A stretch of 58,342 nt of DNA, from sequence record PZ445426.1; one strand, 5' to 3'. Under the pieces are notes generated by a model. That model was given only the letters and a program-made list of their open reading frames with translations. It was not told where the DNA came from and did not search any database. Position numbers and translations under genes: made by a program. The number at the start of each line of letters is the position of its first letter. Positions within the stretch are counted from its first letter, which is position 1. The DNA comes from a phage. Below, piece by piece: positions 4,159-43,727 of this stretch.

Positions 4159-5220
4159 ATGTCTAAATCTAAAATTATTCTACCATTTGGTCGTGGTGAA
4201 ACTGACCTGACTCGTTTGAAGGATGTCATTGTCCCTGAGATCTTCACTGGTTATGTGCAGACGCAGACTGCTGAACTTTCTGCTCTGATTCAATCCGGTG
4301 CGGTTGTAATGGACGAGCGTTTATCTGCTAACCTTGCTGGTGCAGGTCTGACTTTTAACGAGCCGTTCTATAACGACCTGAAAGATGAAGACGAAGATAT
4401 CGCGGTTGATAAAGGCAATCCGTCCAAACCGTCAAACATCACTACCGGATCTGAAGTTCAGGTTCGTATGAGCCGTTCGAAATCCTGGGGTTCTGCGGAT
4501 CTGGTATCAGCTTTGATTGGTAACGACCCAATGACCGCTATCGGTAACCGCGTGTCTGCGTGGTGGGTTCGCCGTCTGCAAGCTGCATACATCGCAACCT
4601 GGAAAGGCGTATTTGCTAATGCGAAGAAATCCCATAAGGATGATCTGACGTTCGATATTTCCGGTTCTTCATTTGTAAACAACCAGACCAACTTTACCGC
4701 GTCTAACTTCATCAACGCAACTGCAACGATGGGTGATGCTGCTCGTGGTCTGACCATGATTATGGTTCACTCTACCGTTCGTAACCGTATGCGTCAGCTA
4801 AACCTGATCGACTTCATTCCGGATGCTCGCGGCGAAACTCAGTTTGAGTATTATCAGGGTCTGCGTATTATTGAAGACGACTCCATGCCGCACGAACCGT
4901 CTACTGGTGTGTTTGAAAGCTGGCTGTTCGGCCCGGGCGCGACTGCAATGGGTGCTGGATCACCGAAAGTTCCGACCGCTGTGGTGCGTGACGAAGCCGC
5001 TAACCAAGGCGCTGGTGAAGAAGTTCTTCACAACCGTGTTGAATGGATTCTGCATCCGGTTGGCCATGCTTGGGCTGCTACTCAAACTGCTAAAGGTGGT
5101 CCGTCTAACGCTGCAACTACTAACAACCTGGCCCATGAAGATTCCTGGCGTCGTGCGTTCCCTGAGCGCAAGCAGCTTAAAGTTGCGCGCCTGATCACTC
5201 GTGAGTATCAGGGTTCCTAA
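4159..5220 (+). CDS. major capsid protein
   Basis: 353-aa ORF with GGAGA RBS after the scaffold-like gene and before an intrinsic terminator; call by position. Confidence 0.55.
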   Translation: MSKSKIILPFGRGETDLTRLKDVIVPEIFTGYVQTQTAELSALIQSGAVVMDERLSANLAGAGLTFNEPFYNDLKDEDEDIAVDKGNPSKPSNITTGSEVQVRMSRSKSWGSADLVSALIGNDPMTAIGNRVSAWWVRRLQAAYIATWKGVFANAKKSHKDDLTFDISGSSFVNNQTNFTASNFINATATMGDAARGLTMIMVHSTVRNRMRQLNLIDFIPDARGETQFEYYQGLRIIEDDSMPHEPSTGVFESWLFGPGATAMGAGSPKVPTAVVRDEAANQGAGEEVLHNRVEWILHPVGHAWAATQTAKGGPSNAATTNNLAHEDSWRRAFPERKQLKVARLITREYQGS

Positions 5221-26780: not shown

Positions 26781-27007
26781 TAGCGATCCTCGATTGCTCT
26801 AATTGTGGTTAAATCTAATTCACAAGTGGGAGGGTATCCATAAAGTCCCATTTGTTTCCCTTGTGCATTAAACCATGTACCTGACGGATCCTGCCACTGC
26901 TTAGGTGTCTTGTGGAGGAATACTACTCTGTTTTCACCGTAATAATTAATTCTTACGCCTGTGTGAGTATATTTACGTTTACCTTTTGGTCTTCTTAAGT
27001 TAGCCAT
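26780..27007 (-). CDS. hypothetical protein
   Basis: 75-aa basic ORF; overlapping start/stop with neighbours. Confidence 0.4.
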   Translation of the reverse strand: MANLRRPKGKRKYTHTGVRINYYGENRVVFLHKTPKQWQDPSGTWFNAQGKQMGLYGYPPTCELDLTTIRAIEDR

Positions 27008-27927
27008 CAGAACAACTCCATTACACGATCACGGAATGTGCCGTCATGGGTAGCGTTAATGTTTGCAGCAATTACACCATACGCCCATAAGTTGAAGGCG
27101 GCACGTGATTCATAGATTGTTGATAAACGTTCGTAAGTGAAACCGTTTTGCTCAAGGTATTTAAGGACAGCGTCTTGTTCAATTTCAGTTAATGTTGAAA
27201 CATGCTTACCAAAATGATGGCGGTCCGACGACTTATCTGATACGCGCATTGGTCCCCAGGGAGGAGTAACCACACTTCCAAACGCTGCCGCTTGAATCCA
27301 GGAAGATGAGTCACAGCTATACCACGGGTAACGTTCCATAATGGTAGTGGACGTAATACCAAATGCATGAAGCTTAATCTTAGGACGACCGCTACCATCG
27401 CAAATATATTTGTCCCACATACGGTCAAGCCATGTTTTAAGCGTGTCCGTTGAACGCCCTACCATGCCACCAATCGTGATATATTCGTAGTTCTTCATGT
27501 AATATTCAAGATAGCGGAAGTCCTCACCAAAGTGAAAGCAAGGTAACGGTTTAGCACCGCGTGCTTCCATTTCAAGCTGGTTACGGTAGGTTTGCAGTGG
27601 ATCACCGATACCATCGAGCACCGACGCCATTACTGCACCATCTTCTACGCGAAGGATGTCTTTGTTGCGCTTAATGTATTCGCAGTATTCAACAATATCA
27701 ATGTGAGCACCCAAAGAGTGCGCGGAGAATGCACCGGAGTCGAGAAACACTTTAGCCCCGTCCGCACGCATCTGATCAACATACTTCTGACGCCCAACGT
27801 AGTGGTATGATTCCAAAATATGGGGCAGATTGCGCGTGATATTTTTCTCATGCTCGGACAACTTTTCATAACGCTGCTGACCAGGCATATATCCGTTCGT
27901 GTAAACTGCTGCCATAAAAACGTTCAT
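27007..27927 (-). CDS. dpdA: DpdA-like DNA-guanine transglycosylase (TGT fold)
   Basis: 306 aa; FLDSGAFS motif resembling the TGT catalytic DSG motif; GGAGG RBS; adjacent to the folE/queD/queC/queE cluster. Confidence 0.5.
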   Translation of the reverse strand: MNVFMAAVYTNGYMPGQQRYEKLSEHEKNITRNLPHILESYHYVGRQKYVDQMRADGAKVFLDSGAFSAHSLGAHIDIVEYCEYIKRNKDILRVEDGAVMASVLDGIGDPLQTYRNQLEMEARGAKPLPCFHFGEDFRYLEYYMKNYEYITIGGMVGRSTDTLKTWLDRMWDKYICDGSGRPKIKLHAFGITSTTIMERYPWYSCDSSSWIQAAAFGSVVTPPWGPMRVSDKSSDRHHFGKHVSTLTEIEQDAVLKYLEQNGFTYERLSTIYESRAAFNLWAYGVIAANINATHDGTFRDRVMELF

Positions 27928-28130
27928 TTTTGGAACGGTCCTCCAAACTGATCAATTAGTTCTAAAGTACGCCACGCTTCATTAAATGCTTCGTCCGCGC
28001 GATGTTTAGCGTCAATAAGCTGCTGCTTTAAGACATCTGTAGGCGCATCATTCTGTATTGCAGAGCAAGCATCCGCAGTACCTGCTTTAAGCTGGTAGAA
28101 TGCTGTCTCTAAGATTAGTTGTCTTGACAT
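27924..28130 (-). CDS. hypothetical protein
   Basis: 68 aa from ATG 28130 with GGAGGAAAT RBS; stop overlaps dpdA-like start. Confidence 0.4.
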   Translation of the reverse strand: MSRQLILETAFYQLKAGTADACSAIQNDAPTDVLKQQLIDAKHRADEAFNEAWRTLELIDQFGGPFQK

Positions 28131-28150
28131 ATTTCCTCCAATGACTAAAA

Positions 28151-28182
28151 AGCCCATACCAGTATTATGACCGATATGGGCT
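28151..28182 (-). terminator. intrinsic terminator-like hairpin (AGCCCATA...TATGGGCT + U-tract) downstream of folE
   Basis: 8-bp stem read directly; plus-strand A-run gives a U-tract on the minus strand. Confidence 0.4.
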
Positions 28183-28201
28183 TGATCTGTAAAGCTATCT
28201 A

Positions 28202-28816
28202 TTATTTACAAGCTTCAAGGAACTCCCGCCGCCAATAAGCACCCATATCGGTTCCCCCAAGTCCTGCGCGTGCGGTGCAACCACGGAATGCTTTAGTAAT
28301 AGTAGAGCTGCCGCATACCTGCTTAACTCCTCGCGACTCCATGCACATATGCTTGGCGTCAATATAAACACATACAGCTTTCGGATTCAGGTGCTCCTGG
28401 ATAGCGTCAGCAATCTGGTTAGTAAGACGTTCCTGAACTTGCAGTCGACGACTAAAAGCATCCACAACGCGAGACAGCTTACTAAGCCCAACAATCTTCC
28501 CATTGGGGACATAACCCACAACAGCATGCCCGATAATAGGAGCCATGTGATGCTCGCAATGACTGTATACAGGAATATCACGGACAATGACCATTTCATC
28601 CGTACCTTCCGCACCATCTTCAAAGGTTTTAAACAATCCAGCAATATTGACATCATAACCGCCGAACCATGTAGCATAAGCTTTTGCTACACGCGCTGGA
28701 GTTTCCTCCAGCCCTGGGCGCAGAACCGCGCTAACTTCAATTTGGGATAGTAAAGTACGCACAGCGTTAGCAATACGGAATTGAACACCTTCACTATTAA
28801 TACTATATTTAGACAT
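28202..28816 (-). CDS. folE: GTP cyclohydrolase I
   Basis: HCEHHMAPIIGHAVVGYVP and GLSKLSRVVDAFSRRLQVQERLT motifs; ATG 28816 (AGGAAA RBS) preferred over 28849. Confidence 0.8.
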   Translation of the reverse strand: MSKYSINSEGVQFRIANAVRTLLSQIEVSAVLRPGLEETPARVAKAYATWFGGYDVNIAGLFKTFEDGAEGTDEMVIVRDIPVYSHCEHHMAPIIGHAVVGYVPNGKIVGLSKLSRVVDAFSRRLQVQERLTNQIADAIQEHLNPKAVCVYIDAKHMCMESRGVKQVCGSSTITKAFRGCTARAGLGGTDMGAYWRREFLEACK

Positions 28817-28850
28817 GGTTTGCAGTTTCCTTGTTGTTAATGTGGTCATA

Positions 28851-29360
28851 TTACAGGCTATAGTTTACGTGACATTTCGAAGTTTCTTCGATGGTGCATT
28901 CTACAAGTTGAACGCCATGTTCGTCAAGCAGTTGCGGCCCAATTACGTTTACCATATATGCAGCCAGATTTTCAGCTGTCGGGTTGAACGGTAAAGATAC
29001 CAGCGAGTTGTCAAAGTCCCTTACATCTTGACCCGTAGTTTCGTCACAAAGTTCACAATCAACCTGAAGAGCTTTAATCAAAGGATCTTCTTCCCAATGC
29101 AGGAATTTATGATCCCAGTTGTCTTCCAGCCATTGACAGAGTGTAGTTTTAACCACACTAAAGTCGATCACACGCCCAACTTCGTCCAGTTGCTTAAGGG
29201 ACGCAAATTCGGCTTCGTCCATGACTGTATAAGGGACTTTGGGCGCAACCTTAAAGTGAAACTTATAGTTGTGACCGTGGAGGTGGCGACATTTGCTTTC
29301 GTGACCTACAACACGATGCCCAGCGCAAATCTCATGCGAACGAATTACTGTATAGCTCAT
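28851..29360 (-). CDS. queD: 6-carboxy-5,6,7,8-tetrahydropterin synthase
   Basis: CAGHRVVGHESKCRHLHGHNYKF (Cys-His-His-Glu zinc/catalytic pattern of the PTPS/QueD family). Confidence 0.75.
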   Translation of the reverse strand: MSYTVIRSHEICAGHRVVGHESKCRHLHGHNYKFHFKVAPKVPYTVMDEAEFASLKQLDEVGRVIDFSVVKTTLCQWLEDNWDHKFLHWEEDPLIKALQVDCELCDETTGQDVRDFDNSLVSLPFNPTAENLAAYMVNVIGPQLLDEHGVQLVECTIEETSKCHVNYSL

Positions 29361-29361
29361 T

Positions 29362-29631
29362 TTAACCCTCTTCTACTCTATTCATAAATTCCAAATGACG
29401 ACGCATAGTTTCTTCTTTTGTGGAAGAATTAAAATGCGACCAACCGTTATCTAACGAATAACCCCAGTAATACTCACCATACTTCTTCCGCATAGCTGGG
29501 ATGGGGCATTTCCTTCTTTCAAGCTTAGGATTCTGCGATCTTATATACGCTTGTTTTTCTTTAAGGCTTAATGCTTCAAACCAATCAGCTTGCTCGTGTG
29601 GCTTTAAATGCTTTGGAGGTACAGGAATCAT
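29362..29631 (-). CDS. hypothetical protein
   Basis: 89-aa ORF with AAGAGG RBS inside the que cluster. Confidence 0.4.
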   Translation of the reverse strand: MIPVPPKHLKPHEQADWFEALSLKEKQAYIRSQNPKLERRKCPIPAMRKKYGEYYWGYSLDNGWSHFNSSTKEETMRRHLEFMNRVEEG

Positions 29632-30224
29632 TTTAACACCTCTTTAGACTGTTCAATTTCTAACGCACGCTGTGCGGATGCAATAATATCTTTCAAGTCT
29701 TCTACCAGACTTTTATGACCGCGTTCGCCCGGCTGCAACGCCTTTTTAATTAAATGTTGTAAAGCTGGGTTAGTTGTTTTCCAAGCTTCCAAGACATCAT
29801 ACACGTCCACGATGCATTTTACAACATTGCCGTTTTGATCTTTACCATAAATAATTTTCTGATATTTATTCATGGGAATTTTAGATGGTTCATCTTTCGT
29901 AAAAATTGCGGTTTTATCAGTTCTCCAATCGGGCAGATTTGCTTCAATAGATTGTTTGACATAATCATCCGCAACAATATATCGCCAGGCTATAATATCT
30001 TGAACTTTATAAGGGCTATTCTCATCCATAGCTGAACGCCCTTCCATAGCCCAATCCCATCCATGTAATAGATTCTTAACGTGTGTGCCGTTGCGTAAAC
30101 GAACTTCAAACTTCTCATTACGAAGAAAAATAGGCATTCCTTTACCGTCGTGTTGGTGCCAAATTTTATTCAAATTATCTTTCATTTTACGCTCTCGCTG
30201 TACGTGAATGAACTTCGTAAACAA
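29628..30224 (-). CDS. hypothetical protein
   Basis: 198-aa ORF inside the que cluster; true start may be a downstream Met. Confidence 0.4.
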   Translation of the reverse strand: MFTKFIHVQRERKMKDNLNKIWHQHDGKGMPIFLRNEKFEVRLRNGTHVKNLLHGWDWAMEGRSAMDENSPYKVQDIIAWRYIVADDYVKQSIEANLPDWRTDKTAIFTKDEPSKIPMNKYQKIIYGKDQNGNVVKCIVDVYDVLEAWKTTNPALQHLIKKALQPGERGHKSLVEDLKDIIASAQRALEIEQSKEVLK

Positions 30225-30666
30225 CCCAAAGGATGGCAGATGCTGTGAACTTACTTAAGCTCATTGCTACCATTGATCCCGGATTAACAATACCTATAAT
30301 ACTTAAGAAGACAATAGAGTCAATTGGTACAGCTACCAAAGAGCTGATAAATACGCGTTGATGAAAAGGCTTCTTCGTAATCGTGTATACCGCATAGTCC
30401 GCAAACTCGCTAAGGGCGAAGGACGCAACGGATGCAACTACAACCGCAGGATCCCCGAACACCCAGCTAAGGATGCAACCGACAATCATTGCAGGAATAA
30501 CGCCTTTACCAGCGTTACGCTGTGCGTAGTCACGCAACACAAAGATAATACCTACAAAGAAAGCCATCATGGGGACTACGCCAAGAGGCGTGTTAAGCAT
30601 CGGAAGGTAGGAAAAGCCCAGGTTTACGAATGTAATTGCAGCCAGATAAGCAACGATAAATTTCAT
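30187..30666 (-). CDS. YhhQ-like queuosine-precursor transporter
   Basis: ATG 30666 with GGAGAA RBS; about 160 aa, multiple hydrophobic helices; lies between queD and queC. Confidence 0.5.
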   Translation of the reverse strand: MKFIVAYLAAITFVNLGFSYLPMLNTPLGVVPMMAFFVGIIFVLRDYAQRNAGKGVIPAMIVGCILSWVFGDPAVVVASVASFALSEFADYAVYTITKKPFHQRVFISSLVAVPIDSIVFLSIIGIVNPGSMVAMSLSKFTASAILWVVYEVHSRTARA

Positions 30667-30786
30667 ACTTTTGTTCTCCAGTTTTAACAGCGTTATTCGC
30701 TGGTTGTTGGGTTTAAAAGCTTTAGTAGTATAGTTGGGTCCCCGCACCCTAAACAATGCGCTAGCGGTGCGGTTTTCGCGGTAAGA

Positions 30787-31494
30787 TCAAGCTTTGCTAA
30801 TAAATTCGCTGTACCCTTTAGCACGCAGTTTGCACGCAGGACATTCACCGCAACCATATCCCCAGTCATGCAGAGTGCGACGGACGCCATTATAGCAAGT
30901 ATGGGACTGTTCAATTACTGTGGTTAAGAAACCAACCTTATCCGCCAGTTCAAACGTTTCCGCTTTGTTTAAACGCATAAGGGGGGTAACAAAATGAATA
31001 TCTGTTTCATATCCAACGTTTAACGTAGCTTCAAGGAGATCAACAAACTGCTGGCGACAATCCGGATAACCGCTATAGTCTGTTTCACAAACGCCTGTAA
31101 CCACATATCGGGCTCCAACCTTCTGCGCGTAGGCGTGCGCTGTAGTCAGGAAAAGCGCATTACGGTTTGGCACAAAGCTTGCCGGAAGGTTGTTGTGCTG
31201 TTCGTGGTGTTCGTTAACATCGCCTTCGTTCCCAATTAAAGCACTATTGCCAATCTGTTTCAAAGCAGGTAATTCAAAGACAACAAACGGGACATTGTGC
31301 TCTTTACATATCTGTTCAGCGCAAGCCAATTCCACAGTGTGACGTTGACCGTATGCAAAACCAATAGCGTAAACCTTATCATAGTTATTAAGTGCAAGAC
31401 CTAAACAGGTCACGCTGTCCTGGCCGCCAGACAGGACGACAACGGCGGAGTTATGATTTTTTACAGGGAATACCAGTTTATCTAATTTATTCAT
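30787..31494 (-). CDS. queC: 7-cyano-7-deazaguanine synthase
   Basis: N-terminal PP-loop VVVLSGGQDS; C-terminal Cys cluster (CYNGxxxxxxxGYGCGECPAC); 235 aa stand-alone. Confidence 0.8.
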   Translation of the reverse strand: MNKLDKLVFPVKNHNSAVVVLSGGQDSVTCLGLALNNYDKVYAIGFAYGQRHTVELACAEQICKEHNVPFVVFELPALKQIGNSALIGNEGDVNEHHEQHNNLPASFVPNRNALFLTTAHAYAQKVGARYVVTGVCETDYSGYPDCRQQFVDLLEATLNVGYETDIHFVTPLMRLNKAETFELADKVGFLTTVIEQSHTCYNGVRRTLHDWGYGCGECPACKLRAKGYSEFISKA

Positions 31495-31495
31495 T

Positions 31496-31684
31496 TTAGA
31501 AACCTTTAAGACTAATATTAAGGTTAATGACTACTTGTTCCACCACCGCTTCAGATGTTACCTGACGCTGGTGTATCTCAAGCTCCGAATGTATTTTCTT
31601 TGATGCAGCGCGGCAAATAGCGTCATTCAACTCGTCCTGTAAACGTTGGATTTTCTGCATAAGAATTACAGTTTCTTCATTCAT
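31496..31684 (-). CDS. hypothetical protein
   Basis: 62-aa ORF between queE and queC. Confidence 0.35.
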   Translation of the reverse strand: MNEETVILMQKIQRLQDELNDAICRAASKKIHSELEIHQRQVTSEAVVEQVVINLNISLKGF

Positions 31685-31889
31685 CTTCTACACCTTTAAT
31701 ATCACAAGGATTGATTGTTACATTTGACATCACAATTGGATGATTGCGTGCCCCAATTGTGCTAACGTGATTAATATCTAATTCTACATGCACGCCCTGC
31801 ATAGTAGCATGAGCAATTGAAGAATTAAGTTTTTCTACCAGCTCAGTGATCATTTCCTGATGCTGTTTCGCTTCTTCCAAAGTGATCAT
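31677..31889 (-). CDS. hypothetical protein
   Basis: 70-aa ORF; start overlaps queE stop. Confidence 0.35.
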   Translation of the reverse strand: MITLEEAKQHQEMITELVEKLNSSIAHATMQGVHVELDINHVSTIGARNHPIVMSNVTINPCDIKGVEDE

Positions 31890-32596
31890 TATTCCACCCC
31901 GATATATTTATGAACCTGAAGCTGCAACGTGTAACCGTGTTTCATACAGCTTTGGACAACCGCTTGGATATTGCTGTGGTTAAGGTCTTCATCCTGCTCG
32001 TCCATTGGCTGTAAATATATCTTACCCTTGAACCCCTTCGGAGGTCTAGCGATAAATGGCGTAGCTTGATGATCTAATGCTTGAAGAGGTAAACCATCTT
32101 CCACGTTTACACAGCACGCTTTAAGTACATATTTAAATGCATTAGCGCGGCGCAGCACAGAAGGATGAATCTTTGAGGTCTTGGGACTACATACAATCAC
32201 AGGTAACTGGGAAAAGTTCTTAGGTAAAGGCATAGATCCATTAGTTTCAATTTGCACCAAATACCCGCGCGATAACAGTTGTTCAATAAACGGGTTAATT
32301 TGCTGACGGAACGGTTCACCCCCAGTGATAACCACAAGTGAGGTGCTATTGCCTGATTCCAGCTTACGGCTTTCGATTAAACGCATAATATCGACAATAT
32401 GATAAAGACTACGACCAACAGTATAATCTGTATCACAGCCAGGGCATTGCAGATTACACCCAGCAAGACGCACAAATACAGCAGGTTGGCCGCAGAATGG
32501 ACCTTCACCCTGAATGGTAGAGAATACCGAATGGACGTCTAAATACATATCGTTTTCTTTAGAACGGGACTCGGGAGCTTGTTGATTAATATTCAT
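31889..32596 (-). CDS. queE: 7-carboxy-7-deazaguanine synthase (radical SAM)
   Basis: VFVRLAGCNLQCPGCDTDY (QueE-type CxxxCxxC cluster); GAGGA RBS. Confidence 0.8.
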   Translation of the reverse strand: MNINQQAPESRSKENDMYLDVHSVFSTIQGEGPFCGQPAVFVRLAGCNLQCPGCDTDYTVGRSLYHIVDIMRLIESRKLESGNSTSLVVITGGEPFRQQINPFIEQLLSRGYLVQIETNGSMPLPKNFSQLPVIVCSPKTSKIHPSVLRRANAFKYVLKACCVNVEDGLPLQALDHQATPFIARPPKGFKGKIYLQPMDEQDEDLNHSNIQAVVQSCMKHGYTLQLQVHKYIGVE

Positions 32597-32618
32597 CTTA
32601 AATCCTCTAGTGAAAAAG

Positions 32619-32640
32619 AAAGCGCCTCATTGGGCGCTTT
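32619..32640 (-). terminator. intrinsic terminator hairpin (AAAGCGCC-caatga-GGCGCTTT + CUUUUUC) immediately upstream of queE
   Basis: read directly; TTGTAA-18-TATAAT promoter-like hexamers abut it at 32642..32671. Confidence 0.5.
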
Positions 32641-32665
32641 CATTATAACGTGATATGTTTTGATA

Positions 32666-33469
32666 TTACAAGCCGTTCAGGGCTTCCGGTACTGGCATAG
32701 GCACACGACCAGTTACACCATTGAACTTCTTCCAACGTGCATACTGAGTTTTAACAGTATCTTCGTTCAGACCGTGACGACCTGCCAGATTCAGAACATA
32801 AGAGATCGGAGCAGGCTGACCCAGCGTAGCGCTAATCTGATCCATCAGAGCCCAGGCACGACCGCAGGAAGTTTCCGGTTGCGGACGGCGAACACCGTTC
32901 TGTTCAGGCATACGATTAGCTTCTTTTTCTTTCTCGCGGAGCTCTTTAGCGCGTGCTTTTTCCGCTTCTTTTTCTGCCTGTTTTGCAGCACGAATCTTGT
33001 CTTTGAAGCCTTTAATAGTAGCTTCCAGACCATCCACCAGACCCTGAGCAGAAGTTACAGCACCGGACAGGTCTTCACCTTTAGACTTCTTAACGACAGC
33101 TTTCAGCTCTTTCAGAGCTTCTTTAATGGTCTTCAGGTTTGCAGATCCCTGAGTTCCTGCTTCCGTGATCTGTTCAACAGTGCTTTCGTCGGTGACGGTA
33201 GCCAAAGAGTTTTTCAGGATTTCAGCAGCGTTAGCAATCGCATTAAATTTGTTTTCCGCTTCAATGCGGATTTCAGCTTGTTTCTTTTCAGCGGCAGCTT
33301 TTTTCTCTGCTTCTTTTTTCTCTTTTGCTACGCGTGCAGCTTCAGCAGCAGCGGCTTTCTTAGCTTCTGCATCATTCACAGTAGCTTCTTTCTTTGCAGG
33401 TTTAGCAGATTTTGCAGCGGCAGCAGCGGCAGCAGCGGCAGCGGCTTTTTTATCTTCAATGTTGCTCAT
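32666..33469 (-). CDS. Lys/Ala/Glu-rich histone-H1-like protein with poly-Ala tract
   Basis: ATG 33469 with GGAG RBS (track start 33478 is GTG); N-terminal KKAAAAAAAAAAAAK and KAAAEKK repeats; globular C-terminal 90 aa. Confidence 0.45.
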   Translation of the reverse strand: MSNIEDKKAAAAAAAAAAAKSAKPAKKEATVNDAEAKKAAAAEAARVAKEKKEAEKKAAAEKKQAEIRIEAENKFNAIANAAEILKNSLATVTDESTVEQITEAGTQGSANLKTIKEALKELKAVVKKSKGEDLSGAVTSAQGLVDGLEATIKGFKDKIRAAKQAEKEAEKARAKELREKEKEANRMPEQNGVRRPQPETSCGRAWALMDQISATLGQPAPISYVLNLAGRHGLNEDTVKTQYARWKKFNGVTGRVPMPVPEALNGL

Positions 33470-33596
33470 TCTCTTCACTCCGAATTGTTATGGGTTCGTT
33501 TGTTACCAACGGGGTTAAATGTACCAAAGGATTTTGTGACACGCAACCCCTTATCTGAACATTTTTAAAAATATTTTTGATCAAGCTTAGAACTTA

Positions 33597-34091
33597 CTAG
33601 CTCTTTGCCCCTCTTCCCGGCGTCCATGCAGCTTGCAATGCGGGTTGTTCACAAACGACCCGGGCACCGGAAATAATACCACCCTCCCGTTCAGCATCGT
33701 ATTTGACACGGGCAGGTTTCCAAAGTCCTTCATCCATTGACGGTACATATTGCCCAATTTGAGGTGAGCAAAAGCCTTGGATATCGTATTCCACACAGAA
33801 TTCGGCTTGTGCGCTGATTTGGGCGTGATCCAGGATTGTTTCTGGAAGTTGAGTAAAGTAATCAAACAAAATGCGCTCAACAATTTCCCGTTCATAAGGT
33901 GCAGCTCCTAAGTTTTCTGTCAGGTTAATATAAAGCATTTGAAGATCAACATCTTCAAGATCTTTTAAATCGTTTACTGGTGTTACCAGTGTTGACTCTG
34001 GACAACAAATAATTCCAAGTTGGTGTAGTGTCAGCCAATTGGGATGCTTTGCCAAGAGTTCAAATTTATCTGTATCAATCAGGACGTACAT
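33597..34091 (-). CDS. hypothetical protein
   Basis: 164-aa ORF in minus-strand operon. Confidence 0.45.
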   Translation of the reverse strand: MYVLIDTDKFELLAKHPNWLTLHQLGIICCPESTLVTPVNDLKDLEDVDLQMLYINLTENLGAAPYEREIVERILFDYFTQLPETILDHAQISAQAEFCVEYDIQGFCSPQIGQYVPSMDEGLWKPARVKYDAEREGGIISGARVVCEQPALQAAWTPGRGAKS

Positions 34092-34150: not shown

Positions 34151-36127
34151 TTAGAAAGGAACGTAATCCGGATCATCTACTTGTACAGGGTTAACCACAT
34201 TGTTCACCGTTATACCTTGCGTATTCTGCGAAACAATATCGTCCCAGCTTACATCATCGTTATAGCTCGGACCTTCTGTTGTTCCATCCTGCCCGTATAC
34301 TTTAATCTGAATAGCTTCGTCGTCCTGTGGAGCTTCAAACTTACCGAAACAAGTACCATCATAATCATAGTTCAATATCTCAGGCCATTTCTTATTGGTA
34401 TGAACTTTGATGTATTTTGGTGTTTTAAGCATTGCAGCAACATCAAGGGCTTCTTCAATAGTTTGTGGTAAAGGTAAATGTGTCCTTTTCTTCCACCATG
34501 CCACCGCTTTACGACCCGCCCAGTCACCATGAAGTAGAGCTACCCATTCGCTGAATATTTTACTACCGCAATAATAAGTCACCTTCATTGTTGGAGGTTT
34601 GGAGCTGTCATTGCGTTTAGTGTGCTTCGCATAAGTAACATGCGTAACTTTAAAGTCTTCAACTACAGGAATGTCCTGCTTGATCAGGGCTTCCGTACTT
34701 GCAGCTTTCTTGAGTTTGGTCTGGAACTTAAACTCATGGCCGCAAAAGCCTTCTTTAACGTAATCCGTCCCGCGTAGCCTAAAACCTTTCAGATATAATT
34801 GTTGAACTTGTTCCTGTGTGACGCTGTCCATTGGGATTGGTGCGAAGCCACCGCAATAGCGAGCGGATGCATGATTATACGACCCACATACATCGCATTC
34901 TTTAACCGGAGCAGTGCCAGCACCTTTTTCGCCCGGGCGCTTGGGTTTAACAGGGTCGTTAATAGGGCCCAAACGGCGCGTATTACCGCTGAAATCCAGT
35001 ACAAGGCAGTTCTGCTTGGGGCTTGCCGCAATAGCTTGTAAGCGTCCCTCCTGCGTGGAAAGATCAAAGCCCTCCGCGTACACCGGACGCGTACCGCGAC
35101 CCAGCATCTGAACCCATAACACCGCCGACGCAGTGGGGCGAAGCATGATAATCAGATCAAGCATTGGATGGTCGAAACCTGTGGTTAAGACGTTGTTGTT
35201 CGTTAACGCACGAAATTCACCGCGCTTGAACTTTTCAATAATCTCGTCACGCTCTTTTGCATCAAGCTTTGAGTGAATACATCCGCAACTAATACCCATA
35301 TCATTCAGCATATCACACGCATCTTTAGCGTGTTCAATACCAGAACAAAATATAAGCCAGCTTTGACGGTCTTCACCACATTCAATGGCTTCCTCAAGTG
35401 CGCGGAGTGTTGCGTCGTCGCGATTTACCGCACTTTGCAGCTCACTTTGAATAAACTCACCACCGCGTTTCCCTACCCCGTTGAGGTCCAACTCCATCTT
35501 TGTACGCTTCGGCACAACCGGAAGCAAATAACCTTGCTCCAGGAACCAGTTAAAGGCTTCAGGGGTAGTTGCATCAAACGTTACTTTATCAAATAAAGCA
35601 TCATCGTCTTCGTTTTCCTTAACAATTGAGCCGTAACCCAGTCGATAAGGTGTAGCGGTAAGACCGATAATTTTTAAATACGGGTTAACTTCACGCAATG
35701 CTGCAAAGAACTTCTTATACATTGTTGCATCACGCGGACTAATAAGGTGCGCTTCATCCACAAAGATTAGATCAACCTTGCCAAACTTTTTAGGATGCTT
35801 AGCAACAGATGCAATCCCCGCAAATGTGATAAGATTATAAACTTCTTTACGCTTCAAACCTGCGCTGTAAATACCTGCTGGCGCTTCAGGCCAGACTTTC
35901 ATTAATTTATCATAGTTTTGCGCAATCAACTCTTTGACGTGAGTTAACATCATTACGCGCTGGTTTGGATACCATTTATAAAGCAGATCGAGGAACCCCG
36001 CGATAACGAGCGATTTTCCTGTCCCTGTTGGTAACAGGATCAAAGGGTTCCCCGCGTTACCCTTTTCAGCATCAAAATAGCGGAATACGCTATAAACTGC
36101 TTCCTGTTGATAATCTCTTAATTTCAT
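34151..36127 (-). CDS. SF2 DEAD/DEAH-box helicase
   Basis: motif I LLPTGTGKS, motif II DEAH, motif III TATP, motif VI QMLGRGTR; C-terminal Cys-rich extension. Confidence 0.8.
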   Translation of the reverse strand: MKLRDYQQEAVYSVFRYFDAEKGNAGNPLILLPTGTGKSLVIAGFLDLLYKWYPNQRVMMLTHVKELIAQNYDKLMKVWPEAPAGIYSAGLKRKEVYNLITFAGIASVAKHPKKFGKVDLIFVDEAHLISPRDATMYKKFFAALREVNPYLKIIGLTATPYRLGYGSIVKENEDDDALFDKVTFDATTPEAFNWFLEQGYLLPVVPKRTKMELDLNGVGKRGGEFIQSELQSAVNRDDATLRALEEAIECGEDRQSWLIFCSGIEHAKDACDMLNDMGISCGCIHSKLDAKERDEIIEKFKRGEFRALTNNNVLTTGFDHPMLDLIIMLRPTASAVLWVQMLGRGTRPVYAEGFDLSTQEGRLQAIAASPKQNCLVLDFSGNTRRLGPINDPVKPKRPGEKGAGTAPVKECDVCGSYNHASARYCGGFAPIPMDSVTQEQVQQLYLKGFRLRGTDYVKEGFCGHEFKFQTKLKKAASTEALIKQDIPVVEDFKVTHVTYAKHTKRNDSSKPPTMKVTYYCGSKIFSEWVALLHGDWAGRKAVAWWKKRTHLPLPQTIEEALDVAAMLKTPKYIKVHTNKKWPEILNYDYDGTCFGKFEAPQDDEAIQIKVYGQDGTTEGPSYNDDVSWDDIVSQNTQGITVNNVVNPVQVDDPDYVPF

Positions 36128-36636
36128 AAAGGTCTCACTGTTCTATGATTCTTGTTAAACCCGTATGTAATTTCAGCCTCTTTTCTTGTCTTTATTGCGT
36201 CTTGTAGACTTTCAAAATAACCAAGATGCAGCCGAATACCGTATACATCAATCTGAGCTTTCCATTTCTTATTTGCCTTAGCCCACGTTACTCCAGGACA
36301 ACCGCTCTTATTATTCGATGGTAGTTTTCTATTATGGTTGTTATGGTATTTATTACTTTTATTTAGATTAGTTTTCCAATTATGCGTACCGTCACCATCA
36401 TCATGATCAATATATTCTGGTTCTTCGTTATAGAGCATTTTCCAGATTATACGATGTGCGTAATAATTAAGACCGTTCATAAAAACCATAATATAGGTTT
36501 TACCATGACTAAAAGTAACTTCACTCCCTGCAATTTGACCGTTATGGTTCCAGAATAAGTTACCGCTATCTTCGCTATAGCTAAAAATCCTATTGAGTTC
36601 TTCTTGCGTCGGTAGCGGCAACCTTTTCATAATCAA
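36124..36636 (-). CDS. HNH homing endonuclease with AP2 DNA-binding domain
   Basis: HRIIW...IDHDDGDGTHN (HNH) followed by GVTWAKANKKWKAQI...LGYFES (AP2-like). Confidence 0.65.
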   Translation of the reverse strand: MIMKRLPLPTQEELNRIFSYSEDSGNLFWNHNGQIAGSEVTFSHGKTYIMVFMNGLNYYAHRIIWKMLYNEEPEYIDHDDGDGTHNWKTNLNKSNKYHNNHNRKLPSNNKSGCPGVTWAKANKKWKAQIDVYGIRLHLGYFESLQDAIKTRKEAEITYGFNKNHRTVRPL

Positions 36637-37606: not shown

Positions 37607-38488
37607 TTACTGCTGCCACGGCGGGACTGCTGCTTGTGCCGGATGCGGTTCAGCTTGCTGCTGAGGCTGAGCTTGCTGCTGAGGTGCTGCTGCCTGGCCT
37701 GGCTGTGCTACCTGCTGCGCCCACGGCTGCTGAGCTGCTTCCGGTGCTACTGGCTGTTGTACCGGAGCTTGCTGCACTGGCTGCTGTGGTGCTGCATTTT
37801 GAGCAGGATTATCCCACGGCTGCGGTGCGGCGTTCTGCCACGGTTGAGCTGCTGCGCCCTGCTGCGGTGCTGGTTGCTGCACAGGCTGCTGAACTGGCTG
37901 CTGTTGCTGCACCGGAGCTTGCTGCTGTACAGGTGCTTGCTGTTGCTGAGCAAACGGGTTAGCTGCTGGTTGCCGAGGTGCTGCGCCCGGGAAAGCTGGC
38001 TGCTGTGCTGGAGCACCTGCACCAAACGGGTTAGCTACTGCTGGAGCACCCATTGATGAAGCCTCTGCTGCTTTTTCTGCATATTTAACCGGATCGTTGA
38101 TGTTAGCGTAACCGTTAGGCTCGTTGCTGTCTTCATAACCTTCCTGAGAACGAACTTTCAGACGCAGGTTCAGCGGAATGTTATGCAGCTGAGCAGGGGT
38201 ATCCCAGCGAATTACACCAACCGCATGGGACAGAGCACCCAGTTGCTCGTAAGCGATGCGTACAGTATCTTCGTTGTCGTTAATGACGTTATAACGAGCA
38301 AAGATTTTACGCCCTTTAGCAAAACCGTCAATGATGCTAAACGTTACCTGGATCGCCATACCGCCGTTTTTGGTCGGTTTAAATTCAGATGCTTCAATTA
38401 CTGCTTTATACCAACCTTTCGGCAATGCGCCGTAAGAAGGTGCTTGATAGCTGCTCGCGTCAAAGTGGAAATTAGTTGGCATAGTCAT
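37607..38488 (-). CDS. putative ssDNA-binding protein with long Gln/Pro/Ala-rich low-complexity tail
   Basis: about 140-aa globular N-terminus then about 150 aa of PVQQ/AQQ repeats; directly downstream of Sak4-like ATPase. Confidence 0.45.
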   Translation of the reverse strand: MTMPTNFHFDASSYQAPSYGALPKGWYKAVIEASEFKPTKNGGMAIQVTFSIIDGFAKGRKIFARYNVINDNEDTVRIAYEQLGALSHAVGVIRWDTPAQLHNIPLNLRLKVRSQEGYEDSNEPNGYANINDPVKYAEKAAEASSMGAPAVANPFGAGAPAQQPAFPGAAPRQPAANPFAQQQQAPVQQQAPVQQQQPVQQPVQQPAPQQGAAAQPWQNAAPQPWDNPAQNAAPQQPVQQAPVQQPVAPEAAQQPWAQQVAQPGQAAAPQQQAQPQQQAEPHPAQAAVPPWQQ

Positions 38489-42784: not shown

Positions 42785-43249
42785 TTAAGAATATGTGCCT
42801 GTTTGCACAATGTGATTAATAGCATGTGCTCTGAAGATTTCTCTAAAATCTTCAAGTTCTATTGTGGCACGAATTGGTTCCTTTTTAATATAATGATTGA
42901 ACTCATTAATATCAAAGACGGAAGGGTTCATACATATAACAACTTTCCAACCCGCTCTAGGAATCTTATACATTAAGACCGGGATTTTATTACATTCCTG
43001 TGCAGACTTAACAGTTTGCTTCCACCATGTGTTAACAGCAAGAGTTGCATGGTTTTTAATCTCTACACAATATTGGCAAGTATTATCAATATCCGCACCA
43101 CCTACAGCGGATTGATTTTGTCGCCTTTGTGCAATAGGTTTAGGTGGTAACGGTTTACCAATAAGCTTATGCACTTCAGCATAAATATCGTTGAAAAAAT
43201 CGCAGGCTTCCCTTTCAGCTCTCTGACCTTTTTGACGTATGTTGACCAT
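42785..43249 (-). CDS. putative PD-(D/E)xK resolvase-like nuclease
   Basis: ATG 43249; GADIDNTCQYCVEIK resembles a D...E.K nuclease core; weak call. Confidence 0.3.
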   Translation of the reverse strand: MVNIRQKGQRAEREACDFFNDIYAEVHKLIGKPLPPKPIAQRRQNQSAVGGADIDNTCQYCVEIKNHATLAVNTWWKQTVKSAQECNKIPVLMYKIPRAGWKVVICMNPSVFDINEFNHYIKKEPIRATIELEDFREIFRAHAINHIVQTGTYS

Positions 43250-43727
43250 GATTTGCAAATTCCTTATGTAATTCCAATCTTTTAGCTCTAACCCAAGCTT
43301 TAGCAGCTTGTAAACCTTCAGGTGTAAATTCAAAATATTTTGATACCAGAACACCTCTTACATGTAAGTTTGCATAGTAAACTTGAATACCGTTATGTTT
43401 TGTAATGGTTACACACTTGACACCAGTTTTTGAGTCTTTACGAATAACCATATTATAATTGTTCTGTGAACGATCAGCCAGTCTAAGATTTTCTATTCTG
43501 TTATCGTCTCGAACTCCATTAATATGATCAATTATCATGCCTTCGGGGATATCACCATTGAAGTATTGCCATATTAATCTGTGAGCAAAATAAAATTTCT
43601 TATCAATCTTACCTTGGATATAACCATCCTGACGTCTTGTACCAAATGGTCTTTTATTATATCCGTTTTTATTTCTTTGAAATAATTTGCCATCTATATA
43701 AATAAAACGATCGTTTACATTGATCAT
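43215..43727 (-). CDS. HNH homing endonuclease
   Basis: ATG 43727 with AGGAGG RBS; HRLIWQYFNG...IDHINGVRDDNRIENLRL; preceded by a terminator. Confidence 0.65.
   Translation of the reverse strand: MINVNDRFIYIDGKLFQRNKNGYNKRPFGTRRQDGYIQGKIDKKFYFAHRLIWQYFNGDIPEGMIIDHINGVRDDNRIENLRLADRSQNNYNMVIRKDSKTGVKCVTITKHNGIQVYYANLHVRGVLVSKYFEFTPEGLQAAKAWVRAKRLELHKEFANHGQHTSKRSES

Follow-up and report, generated by a model that had tools for sequence, protein, structure and literature searches.

The minus-strand gene at 32666..33469 of sequence record PZ445426.1, a 58,342-nt stretch of phage DNA (hereafter the window, to which residue and strand numbering refers), encodes a 267-amino acid (aa) protein that ends in a conserved domain. 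This domain, the conserved element of the protein, defines an uncharacterized, phage-only, helix-turn-helix (HTH)-like family of ~1,000 clusters that is missing from Pfam. We tentatively read the protein as an abundant, non-virion, DNA-associated architectural, tethering, or adaptor protein of the phage replication module, a reading in which we place less than even confidence. The gene and its parts are as follows.

32666..33469, minus strand: complete gene, 267 aa plus stop (open reading frame [ORF] and translation; PHROG 11298)
33478..33481, minus strand: Shine-Dalgarno-like GGAG, 8 nt 5′ of the ATG (sequence; the Seurat annotation also has a ribosome-binding site here)
32618..32641, minus strand: intrinsic-terminator-like hairpin with a 9-bp stem (six G-C pairs) followed by a T run, immediately 3′ of the stop codon and ahead of QueE
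33413..33445, minus strand: poly-alanine tract of 11 GCN codons, an in-frame length-change hotspot (translation, Tandem Repeats Finder, relatives)
33389..33451, minus strand: residues 7–27, KKAAAAAAAAAAAKSAKPAKK, basic, free of acidic residues, and H1-tail-like (sequence, charge profile; predicted local distance difference test [pLDDT] score 56–63)
33245..33388, minus strand: residues 28–75, mixed-charge Ala/Lys/Glu-rich helix, the projecting part of predicted helix 4–90 (pLDDT 84–92, charge profile)
32918..33244, minus strand: residues 76–184, remainder of helix 1 plus predicted helices 98–128 and 135–184 (pLDDT 81–98)
32690..32914, minus strand: residues 186–260, conserved C-terminal domain, predicted beta-hairpin with a QNGVRRP motif plus three helices, HTH- or winged-helix-like

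The window amounts in essence to the genome of a Seuratvirus (Queuovirinae), a coliphage. The 1.5 kb around the gene were 96–97% identical to Escherichia phages Dru_SM1, KS_W4, OddieOddie, and WildeMaa and ~91% identical to the Seuratvirus reference species, CAjan and Seurat. In total, 34 records matched, with a nucleotide identity of 90–97% to 30 Seuratvirus-type records. In siphophages of Seuratvirus/Queuovirinae, 7-deazaguanine derivatives take the place of some of the guanine (PMC6884629). The ORF, which starts with an ATG at 33469, is a real gene: PHROG 11298 (no known function) matched it over its full length (E = 4.7e-111; residues 16–267 against profile positions 1–260 of 273), and the same ORF is annotated in relatives as CAjan gp46 (YP_009196840) and Seurat gp44, which, like Vid5 ORF42, have equal length and gene position. 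Within Seuratvirus the orthologs were 87–98% identical, poly-Ala length being their sole substantial difference, and a terminator is annotated at the equivalent site in the Seurat, SA80RD, and PaMx25 records. The gene sequence itself is not new, having been deposited many times as a hypothetical protein; our literature search found no study of the 267-aa protein or its orthologs. Orthologs also appear in sequence records as “transcriptional activator”/FtrA domain, plectin 1, “outer capsid protein” (CSP1C), “chromosome segregation ATPase,” and “membrane protein involved in colicin uptake.” The Ala/Lys/Glu composition explains the scattered names other than “outer capsid protein,” and none of the names has the support of any domain match.

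The first-pass annotation of the window had proposed a folded C-terminal domain, and AlphaFold2 models agreed. Specifically, the full-length model placed a beta-hairpin at residues 189–194 and helices at residues 201–216, 222–231, and 236–249, and a second model, built for residues 180–267 from 83 sequences, left this topology unchanged (pLDDT 78). The domain consensus reads MPEQNGVRRPKPxTxCGxAWxxxDxxSxxLGxPxxI...GLNExNVKTEYARWRKFNGVTGRV, and its invariant or near-invariant positions include N191, P196, W206, D210, S213, Y243, W246, G254, and R255, with conserved K/R, Y, and W residues on helix 3. The stretch LAGRHGLNEDTVKTQYARWKKF, which comprises helix 2, the turn, and helix 3, reads A-x4-G-L-N-x2-T-V-K-x2-Y-x-R-W-K-K and, read by eye and not statistically, resembles the usual HTH pattern of A-x4-G-hydrophobic-polar-x2-T-V plus a basic helix. 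The nearest comparisons that we can name are winged-helix or three-helix modules such as the RecX repeats, the MCM C-terminal winged helix, RPA32C, and Nse1.

Like the whole protein, the domain had no significant match in Pfam or NCBIfam, and the weak Pfam matches, seen in few among 50 family members, were mostly to HTH-type families (PaaX, RecX_HTH1, and Sigma70_r4_2). PADLOC-DB, which covers defense systems and not anti-defense, gave no match to the protein at E ≤ 0.1 and no significant one to the domain; a fold search of BFVD returned uncharacterized phage proteins only; and a profile search of a 5.8-billion-protein set returned only unnamed short relatives free of Pfam domains. A PDB match to a “Tet4 variant” at 1e-5 was rejected as the sum of three weak matches (each E ≥ 8) to a repeated designed protein. 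None of these searches turned up an enzymatic homolog of the C-terminal domain.

The family itself is large. Among 1.84 billion cluster representatives, phmmer found 997 proteins at E ≤ 1e-3, of which 283 reached E ≤ 1e-10; most are 90–300 aa long, with an Ala/Lys/Glu-rich N-terminal part. One member of 89 aa (P0150) consists of the C-terminal domain almost alone, while others carry it in tandem, either in three copies (P0121) or in two or three (P0137, P0142, and P0247). The domain is likewise present two or three times in the viral loci L017 (2280..3170), L022 (two neighboring genes), and L042; in some phages the copies share one protein, and in others, such as Synechococcus phage Yong-L2-223, they lie in two adjacent genes. 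By tblastn, the domain was present in 149 phage records, with hosts that include Escherichia, Pseudomonas, Vibrio, Rhizobium, Providencia, and Stenotrophomonas, and in 0 of 72,556 plasmids. Among 185,579 bacterial and archaeal species genomes (one genome per species, in a search that reaches close relatives only), it appeared on a single 56-kb contig with phage gene order.

With the Sharp and Li codon weights for E. coli, we obtained a codon adaptation index (CAI) of 0.575, which ranks first among 80 ORFs, followed by the genes for the major head protein (0.56) and a DUF669/SSB-like protein (0.516):

4159..5220, plus strand: major head gene, CAI rank 2
37607..38488, minus strand: DUF669/SSB-like gene, CAI rank 3

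That capsid and SSB genes rank next serves as a sanity check on the index. When the same protein was re-encoded with genome-average codons in 1,000 trials, the CAI fell to 0.364 ± 0.027 (maximum 0.454), and the bias was even over the three segments of the gene (0.56–0.59). Only a handful of the phage genes appear tuned for high expression. Together with the gene’s own ribosome-binding site and its own terminator, the CAI points to a protein needed in bulk and not in catalytic amounts. ORF42, the ortholog in Vid5, does not appear in the published liquid chromatography-tandem mass spectrometry (LC-MS/MS) table of virion proteins, and the 267-aa protein had no structural PHROG match; it is probably abundant in the infected cell and not packaged.

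On the minus strand of the window, the gene order is ligase, Sak4-like ATPase, DUF669/SSB-like protein, Cas4-like exonuclease, a small ORF, SF2 helicase, PHROG 7864 protein, the 267-aa gene, and its terminator, followed 3′ of the terminator by QueE, QueC, transporter, QueD, FolE, DpdA, clamp, and polymerase. The neighbors that bear on the argument are listed here.

34151..36127, minus strand: SF2 DNA helicase, 658 aa, conserved upstream anchor (PHROG 16, E = 7.8e-100)
33597..34091, minus strand: upstream neighbor, 164 aa (matched to PHROG 7864, no known function)
31889..32596, minus strand: QueE-like radical-SAM gene, downstream neighbor and start of the 7-deazaguanine cluster (annotation of relatives)
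30787..31494, minus strand: QueC
30187..30666, minus strand: Vut/preQ0-transporter-like gene
28851..29360, minus strand: QueD
28202..28849, minus strand: FolE
27007..27927, minus strand: DpdA-like gene

We compared this order, by tblastn of the window proteins, with that in 80 domain-carrying IMG/VR loci (47–100% identity). QueE lay directly downstream on the same strand in 77 of the 80 (median distance, +640 bp), and the SF2 helicase lay upstream in 73, among them all 69 whose flank reached 4 kb or more. Of the 62 loci with enough downstream flank, 60 contained a Que or DpdA gene. The order is also kept in phages of Pseudomonas (PaMx25), Vibrio (BA3 and VpKK5), Rhizobium (RHEph04), Aminobacter (Erebus), Achromobacter (ART, 95 kb), and Stenotrophomonas. 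Two variants are informative about what the gene belongs to. In L017, the helicase is followed by a gene with three domain copies, DpdA, clamp, and polymerase, with no biosynthetic genes between them; in L070, helicase, gene, and clamp follow one another, with neither Que nor DpdA genes within 10 kb. These variants argue that the gene is part of the replication module and that the Que cluster looks like an adjacent insert. A strict functional tie to the Que/DpdA genes was therefore rejected, L070 keeping the gene in their absence within 10 kb, and the link of the gene with deazaguanine phages may be largely by descent.

The upstream neighbor is also the recurrent fusion partner of the domain. 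In at least seven 50%-identity clusters (P0089, P0167, P0174, P0208, P0235, P0245, and P0157, all of which were aligned), a homolog of the PHROG 7864 protein is joined in frame to an Ala/Lys/Glu linker and the C-terminal domain. The P0089 fusion, found on nine contigs, matched the upstream neighbor by BLASTP at E = 8e-8 and retains an internal GGAG-N8-ATG at the junction, so that a short product may be made besides the long one. The recurrence of these fusions argues that the 267-aa protein and its PHROG 7864 neighbor work together, as they probably do. The neighbor had no Pfam or PDB relative, whether searched as a single sequence or as a profile.

The first-pass annotation had described a histone-H1-like protein with a Lys/Ala-rich N-terminus and a globular C-terminal domain; both parts are present, and what it missed is a three-helix bundle predicted between them. 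The full-length AlphaFold2 model, built from a 20-sequence alignment, had a mean pLDDT of 86 and predicted helices at residues 4–90, 98–128, and 135–184. Within it, the block of about residues 70–170 (pLDDT 91–98) can be read as an antiparallel three-helix bundle, from which the first ~60 residues of helix 1 stick out; residues 1–30 reached a pLDDT of only 56–63. The alignment showed the three-helix unit (residues 76–184) only in Seuratvirus, Nonagvirus, and Vid5-like relatives, and a Foldseek search of the full model against the PDB returned generic helical bundles only, all with E ≥ 0.19.

In composition, the stretch of 189 residues that precedes the C-terminal domain has 21% K+R and 17% D+E, with a net charge of +6, and the sole stretch that is both basic and free of acidic residues is residues 7–27 (KKA11KSAKPAKK). 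The family as a whole is similar: medians over 219 members were 21% K+R, 18% D+E, and 28% Ala, with a median net charge of +3 over ~110 residues and of 0 for the first 30 residues. The region is thus a mixed-charge Ala/Lys/Glu helix and not an H1 tail. The whole protein had no significant match in Pfam or NCBIfam, which rules out a detectable linker-histone domain. With nearly as many acidic as basic residues and no such domain, the H1-like family assignment did not hold, and membership among linker histones or bacterial H1-like proteins was rejected: tandem (S/T)PKK, PAKK, or AAKK repeats are missing, and no GH1/GH5 winged-helix or other recognized histone-like domain was matched. A plectin-, SMC-, or TolA-like identity was rejected as well (SMC in NCBIfam at E = 1.4, spectrin/plakin in Foldseek at E ≥ 0.8, and no TolA domain), these names reflecting the low-complexity Ala/Lys/Glu helix.

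The N-terminus reads MSNIEDKK-A11-KSAKPAKK, followed by KKAAAAEAARVAKEKKEAEKKAAAEKKQAE. Its alanine run had been given as 12 residues at about 33414..33446, encoded by a perfect GCN trinucleotide repeat. The run is real and every codon is GCN; it is 11 residues long, at 33413..33445, and GCC, GCT, and GCA are mixed in a 9-nt unit instead of forming a uniform 3-nt repeat. The codon order is GCC GCT GCC GCT GCT GCC GCT GCT GCC GCT GCA, in which Tandem Repeats Finder scored 3.2 copies of a 9-nt period with 100% matches, against just 76% for a 3-nt period. Among 83 ORFs (17,652 aa), this is the sole homopolymer run exceeding five residues, where the expected number of runs of at least 11 Ala is ~5e-8 from the Ala frequency of the proteome and ~8e-6 from the protein’s own composition.

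The tract was also inferred to be prone to slippage, and here the first-pass annotation was right. We compared its length across ten Seuratvirus sequences, the window included, the relatives being 90–97% identical to the window. Ten codons were found in four (Dru_SM1, WildeMaa, and two IMG/VR contigs, one with a GAA interruption), 11 in five (the window, CAjan, SA80RD, Seurat, and slur01), and 16 in Greed, which has exactly one added copy of the 15-bp unit GCCGCTGCTGCCGCA. The differences were in frame without exception, which supports slippage. Somewhat more distant homologs have runs of seven or eight Ala, and poly-Ala is absent from the Nonagvirus homologs; this absence, together with the length variation, indicates that the poly-Ala is not a conserved functional element. 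As an in-frame repeat that varies between isolates, it could serve as a strain marker.

Two ORFs of 302 and 117 aa, at 32660..33568 and 33165..33518 on the plus strand, overlap the gene in antisense. They are most likely by-products of the codon bias and not genes, since the GCN-, AAA-, and GAA-rich codons of the gene leave the opposite strand free of stops. On the 5′ side of the gene, the 127-nt intergenic region (33470..33596, minus strand) is nearly identical among Seuratvirus isolates. It holds a GGGGTT...AACCCC hairpin and a weak promoter-like TTGCGT-N17-TACATT, and the SA80RD record places a terminator annotation in the equivalent region. The stability of the leader hairpin was not significant (z = −1.5). 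The outline of the candidate TTGCGT-N17-TACATT is common to Nonagvirus, and the motif, with 7 matches in the genome against 7.8 expected, was no more frequent than by chance.

How might such a protein work? On the reading that we tentatively favor, that of a DNA-associated protein of the replication module, the 75-aa C-terminal domain, with its beta-hairpin and HTH-like three-helix unit, would be the conserved business end and would use the basic helix 3 (TVKTQYARWKKF) together with the QNGVRRP hairpin to contact DNA. In front of it, the bundle of three helices and the long mixed-charge Ala/Lys/Glu helix could form a rigid spacer or a self-association module, the short basic tip KKA11KSAKPAKK would add nonspecific affinity, and the partner would be the PHROG 7864 neighbor, beside the SF2 helicase. 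We count the likely abundance, the HTH-like fold, the conserved genomic context, the fusions and tandem domain copies, the absence of the Vid5 ortholog from the virion table, and the phage-only distribution in favor of this reading; repeated DNA-binding modules often resemble such tandem copies. Gene structure, domain layout, family distribution, gene order, fusions, codon bias, and repeat polymorphism are observed, whereas DNA binding, abundance, and partnership with the neighbor are inferences. The DNA-binding or nucleoid-modulating role suggested by the first-pass annotation is in this sense made plausible, not proven, by the HTH-like fold predicted for the C-terminus.

Known systems offer parallels in concept. 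Proteins of the phi29 p6 type are abundant phage-encoded double-stranded DNA-binding “histone-like” replication proteins, and a protein of this kind would coat or organize the phage genome. The 267-aa protein is like p6 in being small, probably very abundant, non-virion, and encoded among replication genes; unlike p6, it has another architecture, no sequence or fold relationship was detected, and DNA binding is only proposed here. Architectural proteins of the H-NS and KfrA types combine a helical oligomerization region with a small DNA-binding domain, and the 267-aa protein similarly joins a long helical or coiled region to a single small domain at one end that bears a conserved basic motif. 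However, no homology to them was found, and here an HTH-like domain at the C-terminus is combined with a three-helix bundle and a single projecting helix that are predicted, as opposed to a demonstrated coiled-coil oligomer.

Several observations weigh against the DNA-associated reading. DNA binding and expression of the family are read from sequence and models, and the invariant helix 1 residues D210 and S213 are atypical as DNA contacts. Neither the protein alone nor two profiles had a genuine sequence match in the PDB, and no HTH family of Pfam or the PDB was matched by sequence. We found no convincing sigma-70 consensus promoter 5′ of the gene; the CAI depends on E. coli weights, and codon bias is only a proxy for abundance. 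Finally, the conserved gene order could stem from shared ancestry of the module instead of function.

Its main rival is a protein-protein adaptor whose winged-helix-like domain docks on a replisome, recombination, or modification partner and does not touch DNA directly, as the RPA32C and MCM C-terminal winged helices dock onto their partners. The candidate partners would be the PHROG 7864 neighbor, the SF2 helicase, the clamp, and DpdA, with the helical part acting as a spacer or scaffold. The repeated fusion to the upstream neighbor, the fixed position between the helicase and the modification/polymerase genes, and the invariant acidic and polar residues D210 and S213 on helix 1 all suit an adaptor. 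However, a CAI above those of the capsid and SSB-like proteins suggests amounts well beyond those of an enzyme partner, and the tandem domain copies and conserved basic residues of helix 3 fit nucleic-acid binding better, so that we regard an adaptor of this kind as possible and rather doubtful.

We consider it clearly unlikely that the protein is a highly abundant, so far unrecognized “chromatin” protein dedicated to genomes with partial replacement of guanine by 7-deazaguanines. In that case it would use its HTH-like domain to coat or organize the modified DNA, or to recruit DpdA and the replisome to it, acting jointly with the PHROG 7864 neighbor and the SF2 helicase, and the family would be a hallmark of the deazaguanine-DNA siphophage lineage.

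It is distinctly improbable that the protein is a sequence-specific transcription regulator that switches on middle or late phage genes. The HTH-like C-terminal domain would suit such a role, there is no phage RNA polymerase among the annotated genes, so that the host enzyme presumably needs redirecting, and records for CAjan, Vid5, Iggy, and Vibrio BA3 share the name “transcriptional activator”/FtrA. However, the protein had no match to FtrA, AraC, or DJ-1 in Pfam (E ≤ 1) or NCBIfam (E ≤ 10) and no significant match to any other model of either, and the names probably come from low-complexity matches. An FtrA/AraC-type activator (a DJ-1/PfpI-like domain plus an AraC-type HTH) was accordingly rejected, neither domain being matched by the whole protein or, at E ≤ 10, by the C-terminal domain. 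Moreover, transcription regulators are normally low in abundance, whereas no other gene of the genome shows so strong a codon bias, and no recurring DNA motif was found.

A nucleoid condenser of the H1 type, acting mainly through the Lys/Ala-rich N-terminal tail, is very improbable. The short KSAKPAKK and the Ala runs beside Lys do recall the C-terminal tails of H1 and the tails of bacterial H1-like proteins (mycobacterial HupB and Ku, AlgP, and Hc1), and the protein is probably abundant. KKA11KSAKPAKK resembles the AKP/PAKK tails of such bacterial proteins, and mycobacterial Ku has been described with PAKKA repeats (PMC3553676). Unlike those tails, however, the 267-aa protein has one short motif and not tandem repeats, and no linker-histone globular domain or other histone-like domain was matched. 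The tail-like stretch spans only 21 residues, the remainder being almost as acidic as basic, and the basic tip and poly-Ala are absent in Nonagvirus and more distant homologs, the conserved part being the C-terminal domain.

A virion or assembly protein (scaffold, decoration, or “outer capsid protein,” the name used in the one GenBank record of CSP1C) is hardly credible, for although the protein is highly helical and probably abundant, like scaffolding proteins, its gene lies in the replication module on the strand opposite to the head genes, Vid5 ORF42 was undetected in virions by LC-MS/MS, and no structural PHROG matched.

Some further observations concern the surroundings of the gene. The complete 7-deazaguanine DNA-modification cluster spans 27007..32596 on the minus strand. 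Between QueC and QueE it contains two small conserved ORFs (31496..31684 and 31677..31889), one of which is named “radical SAM domain-containing protein” in CAjan and had no Pfam radical-SAM match. A 168-aa ORF (36124..36630, minus strand) with no Pfam match separates the SF2 helicase from the Cas4-like exonuclease, which are adjacent in CAjan; it may be a mobile insertion. Elsewhere in the window, a 170-aa ORF (43215..43727, minus strand) has an HNH_3 endonuclease domain (E = 1.5e-22) and is probably a homing endonuclease.

Queuovirinae are common coliphages, several of which, WildeMaa (Bas23) among them, are in the BASEL collection, and the model for 7-deazaguanine DNA modification, and the strongest expression signature in this genome belongs to a gene with no known function that is misnamed in GenBank. 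What is new here is that its annotations are unfounded, that it belongs to an uncharacterized phage-only HTH-like domain family, and that it combines the strongest codon bias with a fixed module position, recurrent fusions to its neighbor, and variation in poly-Ala length; the practical outcome is a correction of the annotations. Should the protein indeed coat or organize phage DNA, or hold together the machinery of helicase, modification, and polymerase, it would supply a core part that the replication module has so far been missing and, more speculatively, a candidate explanation for how these phages handle DNA that lacks the guanine N7 atom.

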